DNA from: an uncultured virus (IMG/VR IMGVR_UViG_3300042691_030539)
Lineage: Duplodnaviria > Heunggongvirae > Uroviricota > Caudoviricetes
IMG/VR virus record: IMGVR_UViG_3300042691_030539
DNA: 64,000 bases
Strand: one strand, 5' to 3'
Made by a program: the position numbers and the translations under genes. The notes beneath the pieces are model-generated. The model was not told the origin of the DNA and ran no database searches. It saw nothing but the letters and a program-made list of their open reading frames with translations. Of this stretch, positions 53,745-64,000 are shown in pieces (the stretch's first letter is position 1; the number at the start of each line of letters is the position of its first letter).

Positions 53745-54341
53745 ATGAAGTCATTTTTGTTGGTATTGTTTTCGTTTGTATCTGTATTTTCATTTGGACA
53801 ATTAAGAGATTCGGTTAGGGTAACGAATAGAGTGTTTGATGTTGTTTACTCTGAAAAATTACAACAACCAAAATGGTTAGTTTACTATTCCACAAATAGA
53901 CCTTCCAATGTGACAAGATCTGGGTTGGATTTCTACACAGAACCAAATATTAAAACATCGGATGGTGCCGATTATTACGCAAACGTTTGGGATAAAGGGC
54001 ATTTAGCACCGGCAGCAACCTTCGCAGATTCTATACATCTAATGAAGCAGACTTTCTCATATCTAAATTGTATTTTACAACATCAGGACTTAAATAGAGG
54101 TGAATGGAGATTATTGGAAGAGCAAGAGAGAGTTTGGGATAATATAGAATCATTGAAAATAAAGGTTCAAATATTTTTTGATAGTACATCACAACTATTA
54201 GCAACGGGTGCAACTGTGCCATCTTATTTTATAAAACATATATACTTTCAAAAGTCAAATAAGTGGAAGTGTTTTAAATTTAAAAATGTAAAGCCAACAA
54301 TAAGTTGGAAAAATTCCGAAATAATTTGTATATCACATTAA
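53745..54341 (+). CDS. Secreted DNA/RNA non-specific endonuclease (NucA/EndoG family)
   Basis: Signal peptide; DKGHLAPA, N..LQ...LNRGEW..LE. Confidence 0.9.
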   Translation: MKSFLLVLFSFVSVFSFGQLRDSVRVTNRVFDVVYSEKLQQPKWLVYYSTNRPSNVTRSGLDFYTEPNIKTSDGADYYANVWDKGHLAPAATFADSIHLMKQTFSYLNCILQHQDLNRGEWRLLEEQERVWDNIESLKIKVQIFFDSTSQLLATGATVPSYFIKHIYFQKSNKWKCFKFKNVKPTISWKNSEIICISH

Positions 54342-54350
54342 ATTACTACA

Positions 54351-54761
54351 ATGTTTGTACCAAATCATCTTCATTTATTAGTAAAGGGTTATTTAAAATC
54401 GCCTCCAAAGAATGAAAAAATTCTAAATACATTTTTCAAACAATTGGTAAATAGAGTTAGGATGAAGGTTGTTGCAGGACCTACATCCGTATATGTATCG
54501 GAACCTGGAAATGAAGGTATGACTGGAACTGTCACATTAGCAACATCACATGCATCAATTCATGTATGGGATAACGAACATCCGGCAATGTTTCAATTCG
54601 ACTTGTATAGTTGTTCTGAATTCACAGCAAAGGAAGTTTTGGATGAAATAAACCTATGGTTTGGATTAGAATCCGCACATTGGGTTATGTTTGATAGAAA
54701 TGGAGAACGATTCTTAAAAATAGATGGTGGTGATATAATTAAAAAAAATGAGAAACATTAA
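54351..54761 (+). CDS. speD: S-adenosylmethionine decarboxylase proenzyme-like
   Basis: HLL, G.TG...LATSHASIH.W, DLYSC. Confidence 0.82.
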   Translation: MFVPNHLHLLVKGYLKSPPKNEKILNTFFKQLVNRVRMKVVAGPTSVYVSEPGNEGMTGTVTLATSHASIHVWDNEHPAMFQFDLYSCSEFTAKEVLDEINLWFGLESAHWVMFDRNGERFLKIDGGDIIKKNEKH

Positions 54762-55260
54762 GTTTGTAGATTCTAAAAAAGAATTTGAACTCATAGATAA
54801 AATTGGAAAGGAATTAATCCAATCAGGATATAACGCATCTAACTCTATTATTATAACCGTTTCCACAGATTATAGTTCAATCATCGGACAAATATTACGG
54901 CATCAATTAAGCCACGCTGGAGAGATTGTGGATGGGTTTGGTATTGATGTTCCGTACCCAGATGAACAATGGGATGAAATATATCGTACTAAATTGGCGG
55001 CTGATTTACAAAACAATTCAAAAAATGTTTATGGTAAAAATATACTATTGGTAGAAGCCGGGGTGATACGTGGGAGTAACTATGAATATGTTGTTAATTA
55101 TATGAATAAATGGTTGGGAATAAATAACAATATCATAACCGTTGCTATGTTTGAAAATATAAGTTCAAAATGGGAAAGTGATTTTGTGGGTGAATATTAC
55201 GATGATACTTTTGAAGATTTGACTTTTTGGTGGGAGAGAGAAAATAAACATTGGAAATAA
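54748..55260 (+). CDS. Type I phosphoribosyltransferase-like protein
   Basis: KNILLVEAGVIRG (variant PRPP loop), C-terminal FWWE. Confidence 0.65.
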   Translation: MRNIKFVDSKKEFELIDKIGKELIQSGYNASNSIIITVSTDYSSIIGQILRHQLSHAGEIVDGFGIDVPYPDEQWDEIYRTKLAADLQNNSKNVYGKNILLVEAGVIRGSNYEYVVNYMNKWLGINNNIITVAMFENISSKWESDFVGEYYDDTFEDLTFWWERENKHWK

Positions 55261-55261
55261 T

Positions 55262-55292
55262 TTTGCCAATTCAAAAAGTTTCTTTATATTGA
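55262..55292 (+). promoter_or_regulatory. Bacteroidota-type promoter
   Basis: TTTG-19 nt-TATATTGA. Confidence 0.55.
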
Positions 55293-55297
55293 AATAA

Positions 55298-55738
55298 ATG
55301 AAGATAAAAAATTGGAATAAGCTAATCGGTGAAAACGTTACAATATTGGGTAGTAGCTTTTTTATAAATGAAGTAGAAGATATACCTACACAATACAAAG
55401 CATCTTTCTTTGATGCATATTCTTTAAAAAAAACATTTGATGTTATTCTACACAAAAAAGATGATTGGTTTGATTTGAGATGTGAATTTCATATAGATAC
55501 TTTGCCAGTCATAAATAAGCAAACAATTAGGGCGGTATTGAGAAAGAATGATATGATAACAATGAATTCATTTATTAATACAATTAACAGATTATTTACA
55601 AAGAATAATATAATTTATTCTTATTTTCAACTTATTGCAGAAGCACAAAAAATAAATAAAAACAAAAATAAATTAAAGATTTCAAATGGTGGTGGTACAT
55701 ATGGAATACCCACCGGTAGTTTAATTTCTAAAATTTAA
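55298..55738 (+). CDS. Hypothetical protein
   Basis: ORF directly after promoter. Confidence 0.6.
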   Translation: MKIKNWNKLIGENVTILGSSFFINEVEDIPTQYKASFFDAYSLKKTFDVILHKKDDWFDLRCEFHIDTLPVINKQTIRAVLRKNDMITMNSFINTINRLFTKNNIIYSYFQLIAEAQKINKNKNKLKISNGGGTYGIPTGSLISKI

Positions 55739-55748
55739 AAATGTAAAA

Positions 55749-55913
55749 ATGAAAATCAAGGATGTAGATCGTTTTTTAAGAGAAGAAACTTATGATGTGA
55801 AAATTGGGAAGAAAAAGCCAAAGAAAATGAAAGCTGAAGAGTTTCATAAAAACGCAAAAAAACCGATTGATAAGAAAAAATGGAAAGATAGTCAACATTT
55901 AAGTAATTTTTAA
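55749..55913 (+). CDS. 54-aa Lys-rich protein (not in ORF track)
   Basis: MKIKDVDRFLREETYDVKIGKKKPKK...; fills gap. Confidence 0.55.
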   Translation: MKIKDVDRFLREETYDVKIGKKKPKKMKAEEFHKNAKKPIDKKKWKDSQHLSNF

Positions 55914-55933
55914 ATAGTTATATAAAAAATAAA

Positions 55934-56098
55934 ATGGAAACATTAGACATTATTTTGGTAGCAATAGCATTATCCGTAATAGTAGGAATAGGAATCTATA
56001 TTGCTTTTCAGAAAAAAGTAGAAAAAGCAAAGGGTGATGGACCGGTACTTCGACCAGAAGATGAGACCGATACCGATATCACCGGTTCTATTTATTAA
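55934..56098 (+). CDS. 54-aa single-TM protein (not in ORF track)
   Basis: METLDIILVAIALSVIVGIGIYIAFQKK... Confidence 0.6.
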   Translation: METLDIILVAIALSVIVGIGIYIAFQKKVEKAKGDGPVLRPEDETDTDITGSIY

Positions 56099-56106
56099 AA
56101 ACATAT

Positions 56107-56475
56107 GGGGATGTTTGGTATTGATTGCCATGCGAATGGTAGTACCACACGTAGTGGGATGGTTCTCCAACCACTTTAATATCGGAACAAAACAATAAAT
56201 GACGAAATGTCAACTATGACCTTCGATGACCTTATGGCCTTCGTTGGTGCTGATTACGCAGTAGCTGCCTAATCCCTCCCGCACACATCGTGGGACTTTA
56301 AAAAGAATGTGAAACCAATGTGGCGTAGGAGCCGAATCGAACTCCTACCACTGTCGGCTAACACGGTGTGAAAATGTTAGATAGGTGCTTATTCCGAATA
56401 ATGAGATAAACGTGTGAAACGCTGGTATTATGATTACTTGGTAAGACACGGGTTCGACTCCCGTCATCTCCACTA
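56107..56475 (+). ncRNA. ssrA: tmRNA
   Basis: Acceptor GGGGATG/CATCTCC-A with G3.U70, T-arm GGTTCGACTCC, tag ORF 56201-56272 DEMSTMTFDDLMAFVGADYAVAA*. Confidence 0.93.
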
Positions 56476-56485
56476 ACCTAAAACG

Positions 56486-56547
56486 TTGATTATCAATGAG
56501 TTACGCACTTTACATTTATTTGTAATATATAACTCATTGACAATCAA
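56486..56547. repeat. 18-bp inverted repeat
   Basis: TTGATTATCAATGAGTTA ... TAACTCATTGACAATCAA, one mismatch. Confidence 0.85.
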
Positions 56548-56573
56548 TTAGTTGGAAGATATTTTAAAAAAGA

Positions 56574-56605
56574 TTTGGTAGTTCAAAAAACTTTTCGTAT
56601 ATTTG
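56574..56605 (+). promoter_or_regulatory. Bacteroidota consensus promoter
   Basis: TTTG-20 nt-TATATTTG. Confidence 0.8.
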
Positions 56606-56608
56606 GAT

Positions 56609-57166
56609 ATGCCAAACAAAAATATCAACACCTACATTGATTTTTACGAATCAAAAATTGATGAAGCAACCCGTTGGGGTAAAAAAGGTAAAATGGGAAT
56701 GGTTAGGTCAACTATGAAAGATTCGGTAGAGTTACTACTTGATCTTATATGGAAAACCGAAAAGGGTGGAGAATCGAAGAAAAATGATTTTGTTGATTCG
56801 ACATCAAAAAATGGATATGTACTTAAATTTCAGGTAGATAGACATTTATATACCAAAAAATTGGTTGGGTTATGTGAGTGTAAGGCGTATTTGGATAGAT
56901 GTTTTATGGAAAGAGCGAGTTCCGATTTTGGAAGGATTAAAAATGGAGTAAAAGAAAAACCTAAAACATTTATTTTGGCATTGGAAGATGCAGTTGGTAG
57001 TGAAGCATATAATTATTATATGGATGAAGGAAACATTGATAAAGTGTTTTATCTTTTGGATGGTAAAAGAAGTCCGAAGAAACCAATTTGGAAACCGAAG
57101 TTTAGAAAAAGTATAAATGTAGAGAAATTGGAAGATTTTGTTTCATTTATACAAAATATAAAATAG
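56609..57166 (+). CDS. Restriction-endonuclease-like PD-(D/E)XK protein (start revised to ATG 56609)
   Basis: E...QVD...ECKAYLD motif. Confidence 0.65.
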   Translation: MPNKNINTYIDFYESKIDEATRWGKKGKMGMVRSTMKDSVELLLDLIWKTEKGGESKKNDFVDSTSKNGYVLKFQVDRHLYTKKLVGLCECKAYLDRCFMERASSDFGRIKNGVKEKPKTFILALEDAVGSEAYNYYMDEGNIDKVFYLLDGKRSPKKPIWKPKFRKSINVEKLEDFVSFIQNIK

Positions 57167-57186
57167 TTCTTTATATATTATTATAT

Positions 57187-57258
57187 TGTGGGGTAGAGCA
57201 GTGGTAGCTCACTAGGCTCATAACCTAGGGGTCGTTGGTTCGAATCCATCCCCCGCAA
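57187..57258 (+). tRNA. tRNA-Met(CAT), initiator-like
   Basis: TGTGGGG/CCCCGCA acceptor, CTAGG-CTCATAA-CCTAG, fMet-like D arm GAGCAGTGGTAGCTC. Confidence 0.88.
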
Positions 57259-57268
57259 CAAAAAAAGA

Positions 57269-57300
57269 TTTGGTAGTTTGAAAAAATTATCCTATCTTAC
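57269..57300 (+). promoter_or_regulatory. Bacteroidota-type promoter
   Basis: TTTG-20 nt-TATCTTAC. Confidence 0.6.
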
Positions 57301-57301
57301 A

Positions 57302-57417
57302 TTTAAGATGATTGGTTGAAGCCAATAGTAATAAAACCGACTATGTGACTCATAAAACATTAGTTTGAATAACAAGAGTGAAATCAAACTATAAAGCCGG
57401 AAACTAATTATCTTAAA
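57302..57417 (+). ncRNA. Unidentified ~115-nt structured RNA
   Basis: 16-bp closing stem with two G.U pairs, internal hairpins, own promoter. Confidence 0.6.
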
Positions 57418-57435
57418 AAGTTTTTTGAAAATAAA

Positions 57436-57467
57436 TTTGGTGATGTAAAAAATGTTTCGTATATTAC
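57436..57467 (+). promoter_or_regulatory. Bacteroidota-type promoter
   Basis: TTTG-20 nt-TATATTAC. Confidence 0.65.
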
Positions 57468-57471
57468 ATAA

Positions 57472-57519
57472 GTAAATGAGAAACAATAGGTGATGAAAGA
57501 TACTCGTTATCAAATTTAC
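57472..57519 (+). ncRNA. Unidentified ~48-nt hairpin RNA
   Basis: GTAAAT/ATTTAC and GGTGATGA/TCGTTATC stems directly after a promoter. Confidence 0.4.
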
Positions 57520-57538
57520 AAAAAAAGTTTTAAAAATA

Positions 57539-57570
57539 TTTGGCGATTTAAAAAATTATTCATATATTTA
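57539..57570 (+). promoter_or_regulatory. Bacteroidota-type promoter for the large ncRNA
   Basis: TTTG-20 nt-TATATTTA; boxA-like AGTTCTTTAA at 57597. Confidence 0.65.
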
Positions 57571-57614
57571 TAAAACAACGGAGAGAAATCTTCAATAGTT
57601 CTTTAAAAGATTGA

Positions 57615-58477
57615 AAGTATTACACATAGTAGACTTGTTCTACATAGTGTACGACCGCCGCCTATGGTGGTTAAATAAACTACGAAAGTAGGATAAAGTG
57701 AGTGTGCTTGGTTTAGTACATTTGCGGCATCAGAAATGGTGCTTGAGTAGGCAAGTGGGATATCATTTGAGCTTTGTACGAAAGGGTAACACTATATCGG
57801 AAGAGTTTGAGTGACCAGGGATATGTAGAATCTTTGGTTGAGTTGGGAACAGCAATAAGAATAACCCATAGAATGCCTGTGAGAAGTATGAGGCTAATCA
57901 CCTTATACCATTGCGACATTCAATTTCAGAGTAAACTTAAAACCAAGCTATCCGAAAGGACGTAAGGTAAGTTGATGTACAGGTGGTGCTGTTATTAACC
58001 TTTAATGTGGGACACCAATCCCTATTAATGAAGTGGACTTAAAAAATGGTACTGACGATAGTACATTGGGTAGTTTAGTATTCTCTCGCTCAAAAGGTGG
58101 GGGAGCTGGTTGGCAAGCCACTACCTGAACAATCTACAAACCAAATTATTTGCATTGAGATTGCATAATCATTAAATCAAATAAGCATAAGTGCTTGCCA
58201 GTTACGGACGAAAGGTGTCTACATAGTATTGAGTTGTTCAATGCCACGATACCTCCGCAAGAGGTCTGTGATTGTAACGAAAAGTTTCTAACACCGCAAG
58301 TGTGAATTTGCTCGGCAGGGTAAAAGAAATGGAGTAATTACAGAGTAGTCAGTAACTTAATGAGTGGTTAGCATTACTAACCGACACTGAACGAATACCA
58401 TTCAAAAGATGGTGGATAAGAAAGGAACTAATAATCTTTCTAAAGGTTGTTCAACCCAACGAGTAATCTCATCGTTT
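57615..58477 (+). ncRNA. Large structured ncRNA, GOLLD-like (~860 nt)
   Basis: No credible ORF, higher GC, many GNRA-type hairpins (CTACGAAAGTAG, TCCGAAAGGA, ACCTCCGCAAGAGGT, ACACCGCAAGTGT), long-range GGCAAGT/GCTTGCC, ends just before a tRNA; family call from size and context. Confidence 0.65.
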
Positions 58478-58482
58478 TATAA

Positions 58483-58553
58483 GCGGAGTTAGTGTAACGA
58501 TAGCACATCGGACTTCCAGTTCGAAGGATGTGGTTTAATTCCATGGCCCCGCT
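58483..58553 (+). tRNA. tRNA-Gly(TCC), atypical
   Basis: TCGGA-CTTCCAG-TTCGA; acceptor A.C mismatch; T-loop TTTAATT. Confidence 0.75.
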
Positions 58554-58558
58554 CACAT

Positions 58559-58841
58559 AGTCAGTTTGCAGTAAAAGCTCGAATGGTGAGGTTAAAAAAG
58601 CAGTTGTGACTTTAAATAAACAAAAAAATTTGTAACTATTCACATTCATCGTGGTCAATTTAGCAATGTGTTCTGATAACCGAACCTACAAGCAGTTTAT
58701 GACCCAAAATAAAAAACTAAAAAGTGTGGAGTTATTAGTTTTCGGGGAGGTTTTATACCTTTAAAAACGTAATCTTTAACGATAGGATTGCCGGTTAAGT
58801 AGTAGGCCACTGCATAGAGTTACCGCTCCCCATTTAACTCT
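58559..58841 (+). ncRNA. Unidentified ~280-nt structured RNA
   Basis: Two similar tandem domains (AGTCA..TGACT; GGTCA..TGACC) plus four further hairpins; no ORF. Confidence 0.45.
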
Positions 58842-58869
58842 AAATTTTTAAAACATATACTTATTATAA

Positions 58870-58938
58870 ATGAAATCTTTAACAACACATACAACGATTT
58901 GTAACCCGATTATTTGGGAAATTTCTGTGCCCTGTTAA
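58870..58938 (+). CDS. Attenuator leader peptide MKSLTTHTTICNPIIWEISVPC (not in ORF track)
   Basis: 22 codons; its stop codon lies inside the antiterminator strand. Confidence 0.7.
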   Translation: MKSLTTHTTICNPIIWEISVPC

Positions 58939-58963
58939 GGATGATTTATTTATTAAAATAATT

Positions 58964-58996
58964 AAAACCCCTTAACGATTGTTTAGGGGTTTTTTA
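58964..58996 (+). terminator. Attenuator terminator (3:4) upstream of tRNA-Ile
   Basis: AAAACCCCTTAAC-GATT-GTTTAGGGGTTTT then T-rich tail. Confidence 0.85.
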
Positions 58997-59006
58997 TTTT
59001 ATACAT

Positions 59007-59080
59007 TGGAATATAGCTCAATTGGTTAGAGCATCCGTCTGATACGCGGAAGGTTGTAGGTTCGATTCCCACTATTCCAA
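59007..59080 (+). tRNA. tRNA-Ile(GAT)
   Basis: TGGAATA/TATTCCA; TCCGT-CTGATAC-GCGGA. Confidence 0.93.
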
Positions 59081-59140
59081 CTATGTTTTGTAGTAAAGGT
59101 GTCAGGTTAAAACTGACATATAAACTATAAAACATAAAAC

Positions 59141-59211
59141 ATCCGCATGGTGAAATGGTATCATAACGGTCTCCAAAACCGCTGTTCCGAGTTCGAATCT
59201 TGGTGTGGGTG
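59141..59211 (+). tRNA. tRNA-Trp(CCA)
   Basis: ATCCGCA/TGTGGGT-G; CGGT-CTCCAAA-ACCG. Confidence 0.88.
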
Positions 59212-59224
59212 CAAATGGAAAAAT

Positions 59225-59506
59225 ATGCTAAACGAATTAAAACAATTGTGGAAAGAAACCGATACCATTCAAAAAATAATGATGGTTGTATTTTTACCTA
59301 TTGGAATAGTTGTTGGCATAATATATGGTTTATGGTTGATATTTTGGAACGTATATGGCATTACGTTTATATGTGGAATGGTACTACTCCAATCAACCGA
59401 TACACCCGAAGAAGGGTGGCAACGAGGGCAGGCAGTGGGAACATTGGTAGGATTAATTCTCTTAATAATAAGAGCTGTAAAATCAAATAATAAAAAAGAA
59501 AATTAA
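59225..59506 (+). CDS. Membrane protein (start revised to ATG 59225)
   Basis: Three hydrophobic segments; the longer track ORF runs through tRNA-Trp. Confidence 0.65.
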   Translation: MLNELKQLWKETDTIQKIMMVVFLPIGIVVGIIYGLWLIFWNVYGITFICGMVLLQSTDTPEEGWQRGQAVGTLVGLILLIIRAVKSNNKKEN

Positions 59507-59507
59507 A

Positions 59508-59771
59508 ATGAAAACATTCAAAGATTTAGTATTTAAACCACATCCTATACATTCGGATGGGATTGTATCTCGATTGGAATTTGATAACGGATATGGGGTT
59601 TCAGTAGTTAGACATTCATCATCTTATGGGTATGATAGGGGTTTATACGAAATGGCAGTATTAAAGGATAATCAGATTCATTACGATAATCCGATAGCAA
59701 AGGGCGATGTAGTGGGTTGGTTACGGGATGAAGATGTAACCGATGCAATGTTAATTATTCAAAGTTGGTAA
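59508..59771 (+). CDS. Conserved phage hypothetical protein
   Basis: FDNGYGVSVV....SYG...GLYEMAVL motif. Confidence 0.75.
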   Translation: MKTFKDLVFKPHPIHSDGIVSRLEFDNGYGVSVVRHSSSYGYDRGLYEMAVLKDNQIHYDNPIAKGDVVGWLRDEDVTDAMLIIQSW

Positions 59772-59772
59772 A

Positions 59773-60297
59773 ATGAGACGTAAGATTATATTCATAGATA
59801 TTGATGGACCTTTAGCATGGGGAACATGGGGTGATGGTAGAGTTCAAATGCACAACGATGGTATGGAATATAATATACCATATCCATGGGTGCATGAAGA
59901 TTGTGATGCATTACAAAAGATAACTGATGAAACAAATGCATCACTAGTGGTTAGTTCTGATTGGAGAAAGCATTTTGGTTTTCTTCAATTAAGACGTATC
60001 TTCCAATACTATGGTATCTACGCACCTATTGTGGATATAACAACACATCAGGACTTATGGAATAGAATGAGTAGACCTTCTGCAGAATGGGAAAGAGCAT
60101 CTGAAATTGTAAAGTGGGCTAAAGATAATAAAGTATCTAATTGGATTTCAATTGATGATATGAAGTTAGACCACCAATACAAATGGATGAAACCCAGAAT
60201 ACCAATGTGGAGACATGTACAGGTTGATGGTGATTGGGGAGTTGGTGGTAGATTGAGAGATAAAGTAGATGAATGCATTGAAAAATTAAATAGGTAG
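59773..60297 (+). CDS. HAD-domain protein (Swiss-Army-Knife RNA-repair-like)
   Basis: IFIDIDGPL, VVSSDWR, R..EI..W, SIDD. Confidence 0.8.
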   Translation: MRRKIIFIDIDGPLAWGTWGDGRVQMHNDGMEYNIPYPWVHEDCDALQKITDETNASLVVSSDWRKHFGFLQLRRIFQYYGIYAPIVDITTHQDLWNRMSRPSAEWERASEIVKWAKDNKVSNWISIDDMKLDHQYKWMKPRIPMWRHVQVDGDWGVGGRLRDKVDECIEKLNR

Positions 60298-60298
60298 T

Positions 60299-60369
60299 GG
60301 TGGGTTGGCCGAGCGATTAGGCGGAGGTCTGCAAAACCTTCCACACAGGTTTGAACCCTGTACCCACCT
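60299..60369 (+). tRNA. tRNA-Cys(GCA)
   Basis: GGTGGGT/ACCCACC-T; GAGGT-CTGCAAA-ACCTT; T-loop TTTGAAC. Confidence 0.88.
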
Positions 60370-60380
60370 CTACTTGATAT

Positions 60381-60452
60381 GGTGACTGTAGCCTAATGGT
60401 AGGGCGAAAGTTTGTGGCACTTTATGTGAGAGTTCGATTCTCTCCGGTCACA
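60381..60452 (+). tRNA. tRNA-His(GTG)
   Basis: G-1, GTGACTG/CGGTCAC; AAAGT-TTGTGGC-ACTTT. Confidence 0.88.
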
Positions 60453-60487
60453 CAAAAGTAAAAATTTTAATATTTAAAAAAAACAAA

Positions 60488-60895
60488 ATGAAAAAAACGT
60501 TACTAACAATTATCTTATCTCTGATTCTATTGATAGGTTCTGCACAAACCAACGAAGCTTACTATAAGGCAGTTTCGACTGAACTTTATGTGAAGAATGA
60601 ATACACTAATGCTTGGGATATATACCAAAAAAATGCAACTACAAATATAACGGTTGTCATTGAAGAAAACTTTGTATCAATACAGGCACAAAAACCAACT
60701 ATATATAGAATTTATAAAGATGAGATTCAACAAATCAACACCGATAAACTAATTGGATCCAGATACACCGCAAAGGATTTAAAAACAAATGAGTGGTGTA
60801 CAATTGATGTGGTTAGAAGTAAATCGGAAGATAATGGATTTTATTTGATAAGTATAATTGTTGGTAAAATCAATTTAAGATATTTTGTACAATAA
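60488..60895 (+). CDS. Secreted hypothetical protein
   Basis: Signal peptide ending GSA-Q. Confidence 0.7.
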   Translation: MKKTLLTIILSLILLIGSAQTNEAYYKAVSTELYVKNEYTNAWDIYQKNATTNITVVIEENFVSIQAQKPTIYRIYKDEIQQINTDKLIGSRYTAKDLKTNEWCTIDVVRSKSEDNGFYLISIIVGKINLRYFVQ

Positions 60896-60912
60896 AAATT
60901 AAAAATTAAGTT

Positions 60913-61458
60913 ATGAAAAAATTAATCCTGTCCCTATCGTTTATTTTAGTAACCCTTTTTGGTCAATCACAAAGTTCTGCAGAGAATGCACTATTTAGAA
61001 TAGAAGCAATGGGTTGGTCCGGCACAAACTATGTAGTGAAGTTAACAAACAAAGTTAATTGTGAAACAACATTTAGATTTAATTATACGGGTGGAGTAAA
61101 AGATACAACACTTTCTGCAAATGTAACTAGTATGATTTTGTTACCGAACATGAGTACAAATGCCGTAAGTATAAAAGTTAAAAGACAAAGTGGAGCGGTG
61201 TGTTTGAATGGAGTTAGTAATGATTGGACAGAAATAAGTGTCCTACAAATAGCATTACCGATTAAGTTCAAATCCATATCAGTTAGAAGAATAAGTAGTA
61301 AGTCGGTTCGATTGGATTTTGAATCGGAAGAAGATAATACAATTGAAAAGTATCACATCAAAATTAGTACAGATGGAAAGCTTTGGAAAGATGTAATGGT
61401 TATATTCCCAAATGGGGTACAAGGAAGTAAAAAATATTCAGTAACAATTAATTTATAA
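60913..61458 (+). CDS. Secreted protein ending in an incomplete Ig-like (LPxxF-type) domain
   Basis: Signal peptide; LPIKFKSI....VRLDF....Y.I..STDGK.W.....Y. Confidence 0.65.
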   Translation: MKKLILSLSFILVTLFGQSQSSAENALFRIEAMGWSGTNYVVKLTNKVNCETTFRFNYTGGVKDTTLSANVTSMILLPNMSTNAVSIKVKRQSGAVCLNGVSNDWTEISVLQIALPIKFKSISVRRISSKSVRLDFESEEDNTIEKYHIKISTDGKLWKDVMVIFPNGVQGSKKYSVTINL

Positions 61459-61461
61459 GGT

Positions 61462-61632
61462 ATGAAAAAGTTTTTATTTATAATGTGTTTATTATTGGTG
61501 GTGTTGGCAGCATGTCTCAAACCAAAAGAAGATGTACAAGTGACAAATACAAATCAGCAAATACTTATAAAAGTGGATGCGGAGCATAATGATGGTGGTA
61601 TAGTAAGTTCTCCTATTGTAGTTGTTCGTTAA
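61462..61632 (+). CDS. 56-aa lipoprotein (not in ORF track)
   Basis: Lipobox LAAC; C-terminal IKVDAEHNDGGIVSSPIVVVR. Confidence 0.7.
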   Translation: MKKFLFIMCLLLVVLAACLKPKEDVQVTNTNQQILIKVDAEHNDGGIVSSPIVVVR

Positions 61633-61643
61633 AATAATGTCAT

Positions 61644-62099
61644 ATGGTATATAAGAAATTGTATTCCGCAGAAGAGGTGGATTTAGTAGAATATGTTAAT
61701 CACTATCTATCAGCAAATGAGAATGTTCAAATCCTAATAGGTTGTGATTCGCAAAATTTTGTAGATAAGACTGTGTATGCCATAGTAGTCGCTTTGTATA
61801 AAAATGGTAAAGGTGCACACGTACTATACAATCGTTGGAAAACTCCTGTAGAACCGACAAGGAATATTAGATTATTAAATGAAGTGTGGTATGCGGTAGA
61901 AGTTGCAGAACATTTAAAAAAAGCAGGATTACCCAAAGTGAAATGGATTGATATTGATATTAATCCTGACCCTAAATACAAATCCAATGAGGTTCTACGG
62001 CAAGCAGTTGGTATGGTTGAGGGTATGGGATATTCGGTTAGGTATAAAACACTTGGTCCAATCGCAACTTATGCGGCAGACCATTTGGTAAAAATATAA
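61644..62099 (+). CDS. RNase H-like YkuK (DUF458) family protein
   Basis: IGCDSQ, GKGA, RLLNEV, IDIN, KSN, AAD.L. Confidence 0.82.
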   Translation: MVYKKLYSAEEVDLVEYVNHYLSANENVQILIGCDSQNFVDKTVYAIVVALYKNGKGAHVLYNRWKTPVEPTRNIRLLNEVWYAVEVAEHLKKAGLPKVKWIDIDINPDPKYKSNEVLRQAVGMVEGMGYSVRYKTLGPIATYAADHLVKI

Positions 62100-62138
62100 T
62101 TTGGTATTGTAACAAATTTTGTATATATTGGTTACAAT
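62100..62138 (+). promoter_or_regulatory. Bacteroidota-type promoter with flanking inverted repeat
   Basis: TTTG-20 nt-TATATTGG; ATTGTAAC-17 nt-GTTACAAT. Confidence 0.7.
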
Positions 62139-62141
62139 TAT

Positions 62142-62213
62142 GGCCTCGTCGTCTAATGGTTAGGACGTCACCCTTTCACGGTGAAGATTTCGGTTCGACT
62201 CCGTGCGAGGCTA
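62142..62213 (+). tRNA. tRNA-Glu(TTC)
   Basis: TCACC-CTTTCAC-GGTGA. Confidence 0.9.
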
Positions 62214-62219
62214 CAAAAT

Positions 62220-62292
62220 GCCCGAGTAGCTCAGTTGGTAGAGCTTCTGATTTGTAATCAGATGGTCGCAGGTTCGAGTCCTGTCTCTGGCT
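62220..62292 (+). tRNA. tRNA-Thr(TGT)
   Basis: TCTGA-TTTGTAA-TCAGA. Confidence 0.93.
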
Positions 62293-62351
62293 CAAAAGGA
62301 CTTTAATGGATGGTGTACACATCTGAAGCAGGTTAGTCCCACCTGTAAAAA

Positions 62352-62425
62352 GGATTGGTAGTTCAGTTGGTTAGAATGCCGCCCTGTCACGGCGGAGGTC
62401 GCGAGTTCGAGTCTCGTCCATTCCG
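62352..62425 (+). tRNA. tRNA-Asp(GTC)
   Basis: CCGCC-CTGTCAC-GGCGG. Confidence 0.95.
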
Positions 62426-62505
62426 CAAAACACAATTCGGTTGTATATGCAATTAGCTCGGCAACCGCTCGCACTTGAAGATGTAAAGTGATTGTGTTCA
62501 CATAT

Positions 62506-62580
62506 GGCCTCGTAGTTCAATGGATAGAACGGGTGACTTCTAATCTCCAGATCCAAGTTCGATTCTTGGCGAGGCTACCA
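62506..62580 (+). tRNA. tRNA-Arg(TCT), CCA encoded
   Basis: GGTGA-CTTCTAA-TCTCC; GGCCTCG/CGAGGCT-ACCA. Confidence 0.92.
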
Positions 62581-62581
62581 T

Positions 62582-62655
62582 CGGGGAATAGTACAGTCCG
62601 GTAGTATGCATGGTTTGGGACCATGAGGTCGTAGGTTCGAATCCTGCTTCCCCGA
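62582..62655 (+). tRNA. tRNA-Pro(TGG)
   Basis: CATGG-TTTGGGA-CCATG. Confidence 0.94.
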
Positions 62656-62664
62656 CAAAAAAGA

Positions 62665-62696
62665 TTTGGAAATGTTGAAAAATATTTCTATCTTAC
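62665..62696 (+). promoter_or_regulatory. Bacteroidota-type promoter
   Basis: TTTG-20 nt-TATCTTAC; boxA-like AGTTCTTTAA at 62701. Confidence 0.65.
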
Positions 62697-62715
62697 ATTT
62701 AGTTCTTTAAGAAAT

Positions 62716-62802
62716 GCCCTTGTGGTGGAATAGGTAGACACGCAGGACTTAAAATCCTGTTCGCCGAAAAAGCGAGTACGAGTTCGATTCTCGTTGGGGG
62801 CA
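62716..62802 (+). tRNA. tRNA-Leu(TAA)
   Basis: CAGGA-CTTAAAA-TCCTG, long variable arm. Confidence 0.93.
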
Positions 62803-62840
62803 CACATTATCGTTCTTTGACATATAAGGAGAAACAAATT

Positions 62841-63161
62841 ATGGAAATACTATCATTCATTTTAGGGATAGCGTTGGTGGTGGTTATTGCACTTGCAATA
62901 GTTGCTATTTACACTTTCGTTAAGGTAGGAAAATTAGCAAATGCTGTGAGAGATTTTGATATTAGAGAATCATCTATATATCAGAATATGCAATCAGAAG
63001 TAGGAGCATTACATAGAAGAGTAGATGAATTGGATAATAATATCGGTAGAAGAATTGATGATTTTGAAAGAGATATTTACTCCCAATTAGATTCTAGATT
63101 AGACAAGTTAGAAAACAAATTAACTGGCAATGTTGCCACAAAACAAAATTTAAAAGCATAA
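62841..63161 (+). CDS. N-terminal TM, coiled-coil protein (start revised to ATG 62841)
   Basis: TM then heptads, C-terminal LDSRLDKLENKL; AAGGAG upstream. Confidence 0.7.
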   Translation: MEILSFILGIALVVVIALAIVAIYTFVKVGKLANAVRDFDIRESSIYQNMQSEVGALHRRVDELDNNIGRRIDDFERDIYSQLDSRLDKLENKLTGNVATKQNLKA

Positions 63162-63186
63162 AATAGTTAAAGAACGATAATGTAAT

Positions 63187-63260
63187 GGGGAAGTAGCTCA
63201 GTTGGCTAGAGCACTTGATTTGCATTCAAGGGGTCATGGGTTCGACTCCCTTCTTCTCCA
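63187..63260 (+). tRNA. tRNA-Ala(TGC)
   Basis: G3.U70; CTTGA-TTTGCAT-TCAAG. Confidence 0.94.
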
Positions 63261-63265
63261 CATTT

Positions 63266-63339
63266 GGACCTATAGCTCAGTCGGTTAGAGCAAATGACTC
63301 ATAATCATTAGGTCCCTGGTTCGAGCCCAGGTGGGTCCA
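63266..63339 (+). tRNA. tRNA(CAT), probably Ile2 (lysidine-type); Met not excluded
   Basis: GGACCTA/TGGGTCC-A; AATGA-CTCATAA-TCATT; body resembles ileX-type tRNAs. Confidence 0.85.
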
Positions 63340-63431
63340 CATAAAAAAATAATATAAAATTAATAATATTTTTTATTATAATCCGTATATATGAATGATT
63401 ACCTTTATTTATTAAAATTCATAATCATTTT

Positions 63432-64000
63432 ATGGCCGGAAAAAAGATATTATTCATTCTCCGAAGGAGAGTTGACTATAACGTACAAAAACATGGAACT
63501 AATAAAAGTTTAAGTACGGGATTGTATAATTCGGCAACATATATGCACGAGATGTTATTGAATGCAGGTATTGATAGTAAAATGTGTGTTGTTGAAGATA
63601 ATAATAAAATCGATAAAGAGGTATCGGAGTATAAACCAACGCATGTTATTATAGAGGCGTTATGGGTTGTACCATCGAAGTTTAGTGTTTTATGTAAACT
63701 ACATCCAAACGTAAAATGGATAATACGTTTACATAGTGAGATACCATTTTTGGGTAACGAAGGAATAGCTTTTGATTGGATTGGTGATTATATAGAATTT
63801 CCTAACGTAATCATCGCACCAAATTCCAAAAGAGCATTGAAAGATGTTCGGAATTTTGTTAAAACTAAAACATATTGGGGTGATGAATACCTTAAAGAAA
63901 AGGTTATACTTTTACCAAATTCATATCCTATTGTTTGGAAAAGAAAAACCTACTCCCAAAAAGATGAATATATAGATATCGCTTGTTTTGGAGCAGTGAG
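63432..64000 (+). CDS. Glycosyltransferase-like (GT-B) protein, 3'-truncated (not in ORF track)
   Basis: MAGKKILFIL...STGLYNSA...KPTHVIIEALW...IRLHSE...IACFGAV, open to window end. Confidence 0.7.
   Translation, partial: MAGKKILFILRRRVDYNVQKHGTNKSLSTGLYNSATYMHEMLLNAGIDSKMCVVEDNNKIDKEVSEYKPTHVIIEALWVVPSKFSVLCKLHPNVKWIIRLHSEIPFLGNEGIAFDWIGDYIEFPNVIIAPNSKRALKDVRNFVKTKTYWGDEYLKEKVILLPNSYPIVWKRKTYSQKDEYIDIACFGAV

Follow-up and report, generated by a model that had tools for sequence, protein, structure and literature searches.

How the expression of the tRNA genes carried by a phage might be controlled is the question raised by a locus in a stretch of 64,000 nucleotides from an uncultured virus of the Caudoviricetes (IMG/VR record IMGVR_UViG_3300042691_030539; the whole stretch is referred to below as the window). 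Here an open reading frame (ORF) of 22 codons, the leader, is followed by a predicted intrinsic terminator and then directly by a series of tRNA genes. In the parts of the published work that were available, phage tRNA genes are regarded as a means of coping with codon mismatch, with the decay of host tRNAs and with defences that cleave tRNA (PMC10264068, PMC11464382, PMC11555353), and on the control of their expression nothing was found in print. An earlier note, made from the sequence of the window, had interpreted the arrangement as a leader-peptide attenuator gating the tRNA genes, and each comparative test that was run (conservation, covariation and codon tracking) lent support to that interpretation. 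The anatomy of the element, its conservation, the coding constraint on the ORF, the covariation of its three helices and the match between leader codons and tRNAs were established computationally, and the element is probably a ribosome-mediated, multivalent leader-peptide transcription attenuator that gates the first block of the tRNA array. From these data we infer that the ORF is translated, that transcription can terminate behind it and that read-through depends on a stalled ribosome, and the natural trigger would be host tRNA decay after shut-off, starvation or a tRNA-cleaving defence.

The leader ORF and its alternative helices

The ORF described in the earlier note is present at its place (Table 1) and encodes the 22 residues MKSLTTHTTICNPIIWEISVPC. 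Its codons include ATT four times, TGG once, TGT twice, CAT once, ACA three times and ACG once, just as had been counted. When analysing the region around it, strand 1 in the 5' part of the ORF and strand 2 across the stop codon were found to be complementary over 10 bp including one G.U pair. This core of the 1:2 helix stands where it had been proposed, while the helix of the predicted fold is longer and takes in the start codon. For the antiterminator, GTTAAGG (58934-58940, strand 2) is complementary to CCTTAAC (58970-58976, strand 3), again as predicted, and strand 3 is at the same time the 5' arm of the proposed 3:4 terminator, which a terminator scan recovered as a hairpin at 58969-58989 followed by TTTTTTATTT. 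The region 58860-59010, folded without constraints as the earlier note had proposed, formed the long 1:2 hairpin (58866-58953) together with the terminator, with an energy of -40.8 kcal/mol compared to -21.5 +/- 3.3 kcal/mol for shuffled sequences (z = -5.8; 0 of 200 shuffles equalled it).

Behind the terminator follows a first block made up of tRNA-Ile, tRNA-Trp, three ORFs, tRNA-Cys and tRNA-His together with further ORFs up to 62099; all four of these tRNAs had been named in advance and all four were called. The leader codons 7, 10, 11, 14, 15, 16, 18 and 22 (His, Ile, Cys, Ile, Ile, Trp, Ile and Cys) are the ones decoded by these putatively gated tRNAs. A comparison of the element with Rfam gave only matches below threshold, with His_leader (RF00514) reaching 25.4 bits against a gathering threshold of 49 (E = 0.98) and Yfr10 33.3 bits against 43; His_leader was the only leader family among them, and for the T-box leader there was no Rfam match at E <= 1 within 54000-64000.

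Conservation in relatives and covariation of the helices

Relatives were gathered through homologues of the 174-amino-acid protein encoded in the first block, combined with a search for the GOLLD RNA in the same records, and further relatives by screening the 3' motif of GOLLD with nhmmer and by means of a conserved block upstream of the leader which is independent of the element. The element was present in 32 of the 32 loci fetched by this independent anchor. After duplicates had been removed, 30 distinct full-length copies were left (alignment A2), to which one on a short contig of a metagenome-assembled genome (MAG) can be added (L234). Their sources are contigs of uncultured freshwater jumbo phages; four of these contigs, with sizes of 198-238 kb, are rated complete. 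A DNA pattern derived from the leader itself was also tried as a finder and was abandoned; it returned 25 loci, of which three were genuine (L039, L041 and L043, all known already) and 22 were chance matches inside genes.

The flanks of 26 arrays were extended by 3.5-12 kb, revealing 14-25 tRNAs per array, while four sequences were not extended: L084 (which maps to the record of L186), L192, and L070 together with L075 (contig ends). Wherever the sequence continues beyond the element, a spacer of 2-12 nt separates the end of the U-tract from the first tRNA of an array on the same strand.

Covariation was measured by duplex swap tests using 23 haplotypes and by pair counts on a MAFFT alignment. 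The sets of four strands differ between phages, being TCTTTAAC/GTTAAGGA/CCCCTTAAC/GTTTAGGGG in the window, CCTTGAC/GTCAGGG/CCCTGAC/GTCGGGG in L179 and CTCTTAACTT/AAGTTAAGGG/CCCCTTAACT/AGTTAAGGGG in L183. For each of the three duplexes the cognate partners were more stable than swapped ones, with -8.37 vs -5.71 kcal/mol for 1:2, -11.29 vs -8.34 kcal/mol for 2:3 and -11.63 vs -10.17 kcal/mol for 3:4, and in all three tests 0 of 5000 permutations equalled the cognate value. Pair counts for the 2:3 helix showed 93.9% of the cells to be paired (85.8% when shuffled and 24-57% in slid controls), and four of its eight pairs had changed on both sides, in 23 such cells, which 0 of 500 shuffles reached. 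The terminator helix was paired in 98.3% of the cells over the 30 sequences and the 1:2 helix in 72%, the latter despite register shifts in the MAFFT alignment.

The predicted folds follow the same pattern. In 25 of the 30 sequences the full-length minimum-energy fold contains 1:2 and the terminator, and when the first 33 bases of the ORF were masked, as they would be by a ribosome, and strand 4 was absent, 2:3 was formed in 30 of 30 folds. All three helices covary, and the folds are predicted to switch from terminator to antiterminator on masking the start of the ORF. The earlier note had made its interpretation depend on conservation of the leader ORF and of the 1:2 and 2:3 pairings, and these are kept, the pairings with covariation, in the 30 distinct relatives.

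The position of strand 2 is likewise restricted. In all sequences in which the predicted partner is the homologous strand 2, it lies at -30 to +11 nt from the stop codon (in L193 a longer predicted duplex extends this to +18) despite a 2.4-fold range in ORF length; in nine leaders of 22 codons the automatic search chose another G-rich stretch within the ORF, and the homologous AAGTTAGG sits just after the stop.

Constraint on the leader ORF

The leader ORF is open in 30 of 30 relatives, with lengths of 22-53 codons, and contains no stops; over this stretch the two alternative frames hold 109 and 81. From base composition, the chance of an open frame of 52 codons is about 0.015. In a nucleotide alignment that was blind to coding, all nine runs of gaps inside the ORF columns were multiples of three, against 10 out of 25 downstream of strand 2. 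Judging from these comparisons the leader ORF is maintained as a reading frame in the relatives, and it is presumably translated.

Not all of the constraint acts on the peptide. Leader codons 3-6 hold the RNA word CTTTAAC, which is kept in two frames (giving TLTL or NFNL), and at this place the constraint is on strand 1. Searches with the leader peptide matched neither a Pfam nor a PHROG family and brought up no usable neighbour in the Atlas, and 24 homologues of its long form were found in the protein database, all of them unnamed or annotated as 'hypothetical'. The large phage is AT-rich (32% G+C), and among the ORFs of at least 150 amino acids in the window a Shine-Dalgarno-like core was found upstream of only 2 out of 54, the upstream regions being A-rich. 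As the genes of this phage are mostly without a Shine-Dalgarno sequence, its absence in front of the leader is normal here.

Leader codons and the tRNA set

The comparison of leader codons with tRNAs was made using strict wobble rules throughout. The fraction of leader codons covered by the tRNA set of the same phage was 0.760, compared to 0.725 with the sets of other phages, and 0 of 20000 permutations reached the former. When permuting within four leader groups, the comparison value rose to 0.744 against 0.760 (p = 0.00045; 0 of 10000 in a rerun). No such own-set signal was seen in frames 2 and 3 of the leader DNA (p = 0.83/0.58 and 0.27/0.27) or in ordinary ORFs of at least 120 amino acids from the same 20 phages (0.5955 vs 0.6008), and the coverage of the leader exceeded that of gene segments of equal length in 20 of the 20 phages, on average by 0.145.

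The match was located in the tRNAs directly behind the terminator. A swap test confined to the first block gave 0.441 vs 0.397 (p < 1e-4), while the same test for the later tRNAs, behind the next promoter, gave 0.337 vs 0.345 (p = 0.91). Relative to genes, the leader was enriched by 0.130 for codons of the first block (18 of 20 phages) and by 0.023 for those of the later tRNAs (13 of 20). The number of first-block tRNAs that have a cognate codon in the leader, here called the roll-call, was complete in the window (4/4, expected 1.7, p = 0.005) as well as in L004 (11/11, expected 5.8, p = 0.0002), L083 (8/8, expected 3.5, p = 0.0008) and L068 (12/12, expected 8.5, p = 0.0002). For the first block the roll-call gave p < 0.06 in 19 out of 20 phages, and for the later tRNAs it was mostly at chance. 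Taken together, 237 of 278 first-block tRNAs are represented at the codon level, compared to 182 and 157 in frames 2 and 3, and 274 of 278 at the amino-acid level. In the leader of the window, 8 of 21 codons match the putatively gated tRNAs, against 12% in ordinary genes.

Individual substitutions in the leader go together with changes in the arrays. Ile16 was replaced by Asn twice, each time where tRNA-Ile is lacking (L088/L190 and L200), and Gly18 (L104) and Cys10 (L200) were replaced by Tyr where tRNA-Tyr heads the array. The change of Cys10 to Tyr is found in the clade without tRNA-Cys. Fisher tests for single amino acids (Phe, Val and Lys) were not used as evidence since they are confounded by leader length, long leaders going with large arrays. 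The expectation that the leader codons would track the downstream tRNAs was thus borne out as a match specific to the own set, the frame and the first block, with the exceptions considered below.

Promoter motifs and the extent of the regulated unit

A recurring promoter-like motif, TTTGG-N(about 17)-CGTATATT(TG), was found in the window at 56574, 57436, 57539 and 62100. The copy at 62100, just ahead of tRNA-Glu and of the form TTTGG..N..TATATT, coincides with what the earlier note had called the next recognisable promoter. An independent promoter in front of tRNA-Ile, which that note had named as evidence against its own interpretation, was looked for with the same motif. In none of the 26 arrays does it occur in the interval from the terminator to the final first-block tRNA, and in the window only 10 bases separate the end of the U-tract from tRNA-Ile. 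Between the first block and tRNA-Glu the motif is present in 18 of the 26 arrays, often again ahead of tRNA-Ser(TGA). Since it follows the first block and never occurs inside it, the attenuator would gate this block only.

As no copy of the motif was found in the window from 57570 to 62100, the leader is without a recognisable promoter of its own. Its transcript may start about 1.3 kb upstream, at the motif in front of GOLLD. In most copies an AT-rich box, TATATATT or TATATTTA, is located 4-16 nt ahead of the ATG of the leader, and no consistent -33 element was found with it.

These observations bear on an explanation without regulation, in which the leader is an ordinary small-protein gene and its terminator a constitutive one that ends the unit of GOLLD or other non-coding RNA. 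Transcription of the tRNAs would then come from leakage through this terminator or start at a promoter that escaped recognition, and no regulatory role would fall to the alternative pairings. Gene callers do predict a hypothetical protein here, the long forms with their 24 database homologues are well conserved, and the sequence immediately ahead of the leader revealed no promoter. In one locus (L053) GOLLD directly precedes a plain terminator, with neither leader nor tRNAs. A gene of this kind, however, leaves the codon match with the first block unexplained, and its peptide has no Pfam or PHROG match. Neither would it account for strand 2 covarying with both strand 1 and strand 3, or for the stop codon staying beside strand 2 while the ORF ranges from 22 to 53 codons, and the short distance of 2-12 nt from the U-tract to the first tRNA, in arrays where the first block holds no promoter motif, speaks against separate transcription of the tRNAs. 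The small-protein explanation is therefore considered quite improbable.

The tRNA arrays as such are split into units by the promoter-like motif, as observed in the window and in the loci L207-L233. The scarcity of Shine-Dalgarno sequences together with a promoter motif resembling TTTG..TAnnTTTG suggests a host of the Bacteroidota type. Cyanobium was also considered as host and set aside, as this call rests on a 1.6-kb contig of a MAG so labelled (copy L234) and is unreliable.

Proposed mechanism

In trp, his, thr and ilv leaders, according to the available parts of the literature, stalling of the ribosome over strand 1 makes strand 2 available to strand 3, and their pairing blocks the terminator; when the ribosome is at the stop codon it covers strand 2 and termination proceeds (PMC1183508; PMC3082878). 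A corresponding series of events in the window would begin with transcription of the short ORF, with strand 1 in its 5' part and strand 2 at its end. With no ribosome present, or with one running to the stop codon, strand 2 would be paired with strand 1 or covered; while it is unavailable the 3:4 terminator would form and transcription would stop 10 nt before tRNA-Ile. A ribosome held on the leader would cover strand 1 or keep strands 1 and 2 apart, and the freed strand 2 could then pair with strand 3, so that no terminator forms and the tRNA genes are transcribed. Strands 1 and 2 are separated by 48 nt in the window, and with a footprint of about 30 nt a ribosome anywhere at codons 2-16 would lie over strand 1 or occupy most of the spacer, and either would hinder 1:2. 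With at least one codon for nearly every gated tRNA (in the window Ile, Trp, Cys and His) the switch would be multivalent; slow decoding of any such codon would raise the whole unit and ample supply would shut it down, as a feedback.

A more specific proposal, to which we give somewhat less than an even chance, is that the leader calls the roll, listing one codon per gated tRNA, and serves as an on-demand feedback sensor of those very tRNAs. Decoding capacity would be gauged codon by codon, and any shortage, whether from host tRNA decay after shut-off or from cutting by anticodon nucleases, would induce the phage tRNAs together with the RNA-repair-type HAD protein until restored supply represses them. 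The device shares a non-coding cluster, and possibly a transcript, with GOLLD and would link this nanocage RNA to tRNA supply.

Several observations weigh against the attenuator and its codon-wise version. The leader has no tandem run of one regulatory codon, unlike the trp or his leaders, and many of the first-block codons occupy positions 14-22, too far along for a ribosome stalled there to cover strand 1. In the forms with 50-53 codons about 114 nt lie between strands 1 and 2, and there the simple geometry does not account for the action of stalls in the middle of the ORF. Regarding the codon match, His7 is kept in four of the four phages without tRNA-His, Ile codons are kept in L057, L083, L093 and L197 where tRNA-Ile is missing, and L057 and L193 have tRNA-Tyr and no Tyr codon. 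The absence of a tRNA depends on ARAGORN calls and on flanks of 3.5-12 kb, and the permutation p-values assume more independence than homologous leaders from related phages possess. Pairwise differences of the ORF show no excess at the third codon position (3222/3796/3672), and the coding case therefore rests on frame maintenance. There is the lack of a recognisable promoter immediately upstream, already mentioned, and the RNA-library contigs from four metatranscriptomes leave the leader uncovered and are uninformative on its expression and 3' ends. Finally, the residues H7, R16, W19, G21, M24, F25, G37, V39, D40 and Y41 are invariant in 25 long-form sequences, which is more than a counter of codons needs.

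Such conservation of the peptide, to an extent that codons alone would not require (H7, W, G and MF, with GKVDY added in the long forms), would fit an attenuator of another kind, responding to the general status of translation or acting through an arrest peptide. What is sensed would be any slowing of ribosomes, as by host shut-off, ribosome-targeting toxins or antibiotics, or a ligand recognised via the nascent peptide, and not the supply of the gated tRNAs. With codons that occur singly and not in runs, the response to any one tRNA would be weak, and His7 is invariant even in the four phages without tRNA-His. Generic stall-sensing leaders are also established for antibiotic-resistance genes (bmrCD and ermB), according to those parts of the sources that were available. 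Some of the peptide conservation, however, falls on paired RNA: GTATGT is the partner of ACATAC, and the ORF contains both strand 1 and strand 2. Changes in the leader also run parallel to gain and loss of tRNAs. If codon identity were irrelevant, a match specific to the frame, the own set and the first block would not be expected. A general sensor of this type is hence regarded as unlikely.

If an attenuator responding to the supply of the gated tRNAs is the true reading, a leader ORF matched to these tRNAs would constitute a self-contained feedback sensor of decoding capacity, in which the depletion of one tRNA would induce the whole block. Classical attenuation would then extend from amino-acid synthesis to the tRNA pool itself, and the element would offer a natural multivalent part for sensing tRNA supply.

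Features of the locus and its surroundings

The features of the element, the first block and the flanking promoter-like motifs are collected in Table 1.

Table 1. Position of the putative attenuator, the genes behind it and the nearest promoter-like motifs in the window.
Feature	Position	Strand	Basis
Promoter-like motif, closest copy upstream of the leader, ahead of GOLLD RNA	57539-57568	+	motif scan
Extended 1:2 hairpin of the minimum-energy fold, start codon inside	58866-58953	+	folding, z = -5.8 and z = -4.9
Leader ORF, 22 codons, 22 amino acids, MKSLTTHTTICNPIIWEISVPC	58870-58938	+	ORF translation
Strand 1, ATCTTTAACA, within leader codons 2-5	58875-58884	+	complementarity, fold
Strand 2, TGTTAAGGAT, across the stop codon; partner strand 1 or strand 3	58933-58942	+	complementarity, fold
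Strand 3, CCCCTTAAC, 5' arm of the terminator; alternative partner strand 2	58968-58976	+	complementarity, fold, covariation
Strand 4, GTTTAGGGG, and U-tract, TTTTTTATTTT, predicted intrinsic terminator	58981-59000	+	scan, fold
tRNA-Ile(GAT)	59007-59081	+	tRNA call
tRNA-Trp(CCA)	59141-59212	+	tRNA call
Three ORFs inside the putatively gated unit (94, 87 and 174 amino acids)	59222-60297	+	ORF list
174-amino-acid protein, PF18143 (HAD_SAK_2; HAD domain of 'Swiss Army Knife' RNA-repair proteins)	59773-60297	+	Pfam, E = 3.1e-18
tRNA-Cys(GCA)	60299-60370	+	tRNA call
tRNA-His(GTG)	60382-60453	+	tRNA call
PF04308 RNase H-like protein, last gene of the unit	61644-62099		E = 2e-19
Next promoter-like motif, TTTGGTA..N..TATATATT, ahead of tRNA-Glu (62142); putative end of the gated unit	62100-62129	+	motif scan

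The gene for the HAD protein (PF18143) does not adjoin the tRNAs in 24 of 27 loci of relatives. In many arrays a tRNA-Ser with the anticodon ACT (A at position 34) was called (L131/L215, L058/L217 and L194/L222), and others have GCT at the same place; an ACT anticodon in tRNA-Ser is unusual for bacteria and phages.

Upstream of the leader the window contains a tRNA-Met, a transfer-messenger RNA (tmRNA) at 56107-56473 with the tag peptide DEMSTMTFDDLMAFVGADYAVAA (ARAGORN; 78 bits in Rfam), for which near-identical tags were found in relatives, and GOLLD RNA (RF02032) at 58066-58475, scoring 300.2 bits against a gathering threshold of 150. A contig of 782 nt from an RNA library covers 57673-58454, i.e. 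GOLLD, with two mismatches. The function of GOLLD is given as unknown in the available part of the literature (10.1101/2024.12.08.627333), and adjoining a putatively regulated tRNA operon the RNA gains a functional neighbourhood. In this phage family there is one putative attenuator, located downstream of GOLLD.

Directly 3' of GOLLD, at 58483-58553, lies a tRNA-Gly(TCC)-like gene with an Rfam tRNA score of 41 bits and no ARAGORN call in the window; at the equivalent place upstream of the leader a tRNA-Gly(TCC) was called by ARAGORN in L088, L127, L179 and L234. Between this gene and the leader an RNA of about 250 nt appears as a separate contig in four metatranscriptomes, spanning 58573-58823, 58586-58810, 58573-58808 and 58571-58830, respectively. 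It has no Rfam match (58571-58830) and its single-sequence fold is no better than that of shuffles (z = -0.21); by eye, parts of it recur in L056, L057 and L058, while L002 lacks it. The conserved block upstream of the leader is about 60 nt long (GAGGCTAGTATTAACCGGAGCATGACTTG..TGGCGTATTTTGAA) and is located 40-60 nt from the leader in 32 of the 32 anchored loci, for example at 180-250 in L004 and 2215-2280 in L057. In the window it gave no match at two mismatches, and by eye it is absent from L002.

The position of the element within this run of non-coding RNAs (tmRNA, GOLLD, the tRNA-Gly-like gene and the 250-nt RNA seen in four RNA libraries), together with a long 1:2 hairpin which in the window encloses the start codon, could suggest that it acts as RNA only or through a factor, as a processing site for RNase III or RNase P or as a target of phage antitermination in a GOLLD-tRNA precursor. 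The ORF would then be incidental. A chance reading frame would not be kept open for 22-53 codons through indels that all preserve the frame, nor would it match the tRNA set in one frame specifically. With no Rfam family at threshold on the element in addition, this explanation is very improbable.

Comparison with known systems

A search for a leader-peptide attenuator controlling tRNA genes revealed no published account, subscription-only literature being outside the search, and the claim that none has been described for phage tRNA genes agrees with what is openly searchable. A possible attenuator ahead of the tRNA-Phe genes pheV and pheU of E. coli was dropped as a precedent, since the upstream regions in K-12 show a promoter only and no leader ORF.

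The closest likeness is to the multivalent enterobacterial attenuators, the thr leader with Thr and Ile codons and the ilvGMEDA leader with Ile, Leu and Val codons. Shared with these are the short ORF, the alternative 1:2, 2:3 and 3:4 helices, the predicted intrinsic terminator, a stop codon at strand 2 and the presence of several kinds of regulatory codons tied to what the operon supplies. The element of the window differs in that phage tRNAs and not biosynthetic enzymes would be regulated, in representing each of 4-15 tRNA species by one codon or a few, where thr and ilv have runs for 1-3 amino acids, and in the host type lacking Shine-Dalgarno sequences, and there is no sequence similarity. 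As in the leaders of ermB, bmrCD and mef/mel, a ribosome stalled on a short upstream ORF would remodel the RNA and turn on the genes downstream; those leaders, as far as described in the available parts of the sources, answer to drug-bound ribosomes or arrest peptides and show no codon match to the regulated genes.

In E. coli the pheST attenuator, with its leader pheM, senses one amino acid and controls a synthetase. Both this system and the T-box leaders of aminoacyl-tRNA synthetase genes resemble the proposed attenuator in that a component of the decoding machinery is set by attenuation according to charged or uncharged tRNA. T-box leaders differ in that no ribosome takes part and the leader RNA itself binds the tRNA, and the region gave no T-box match, while in contrast to pheST the products of the unit in the window are the tRNAs themselves, which would give a direct feedback.

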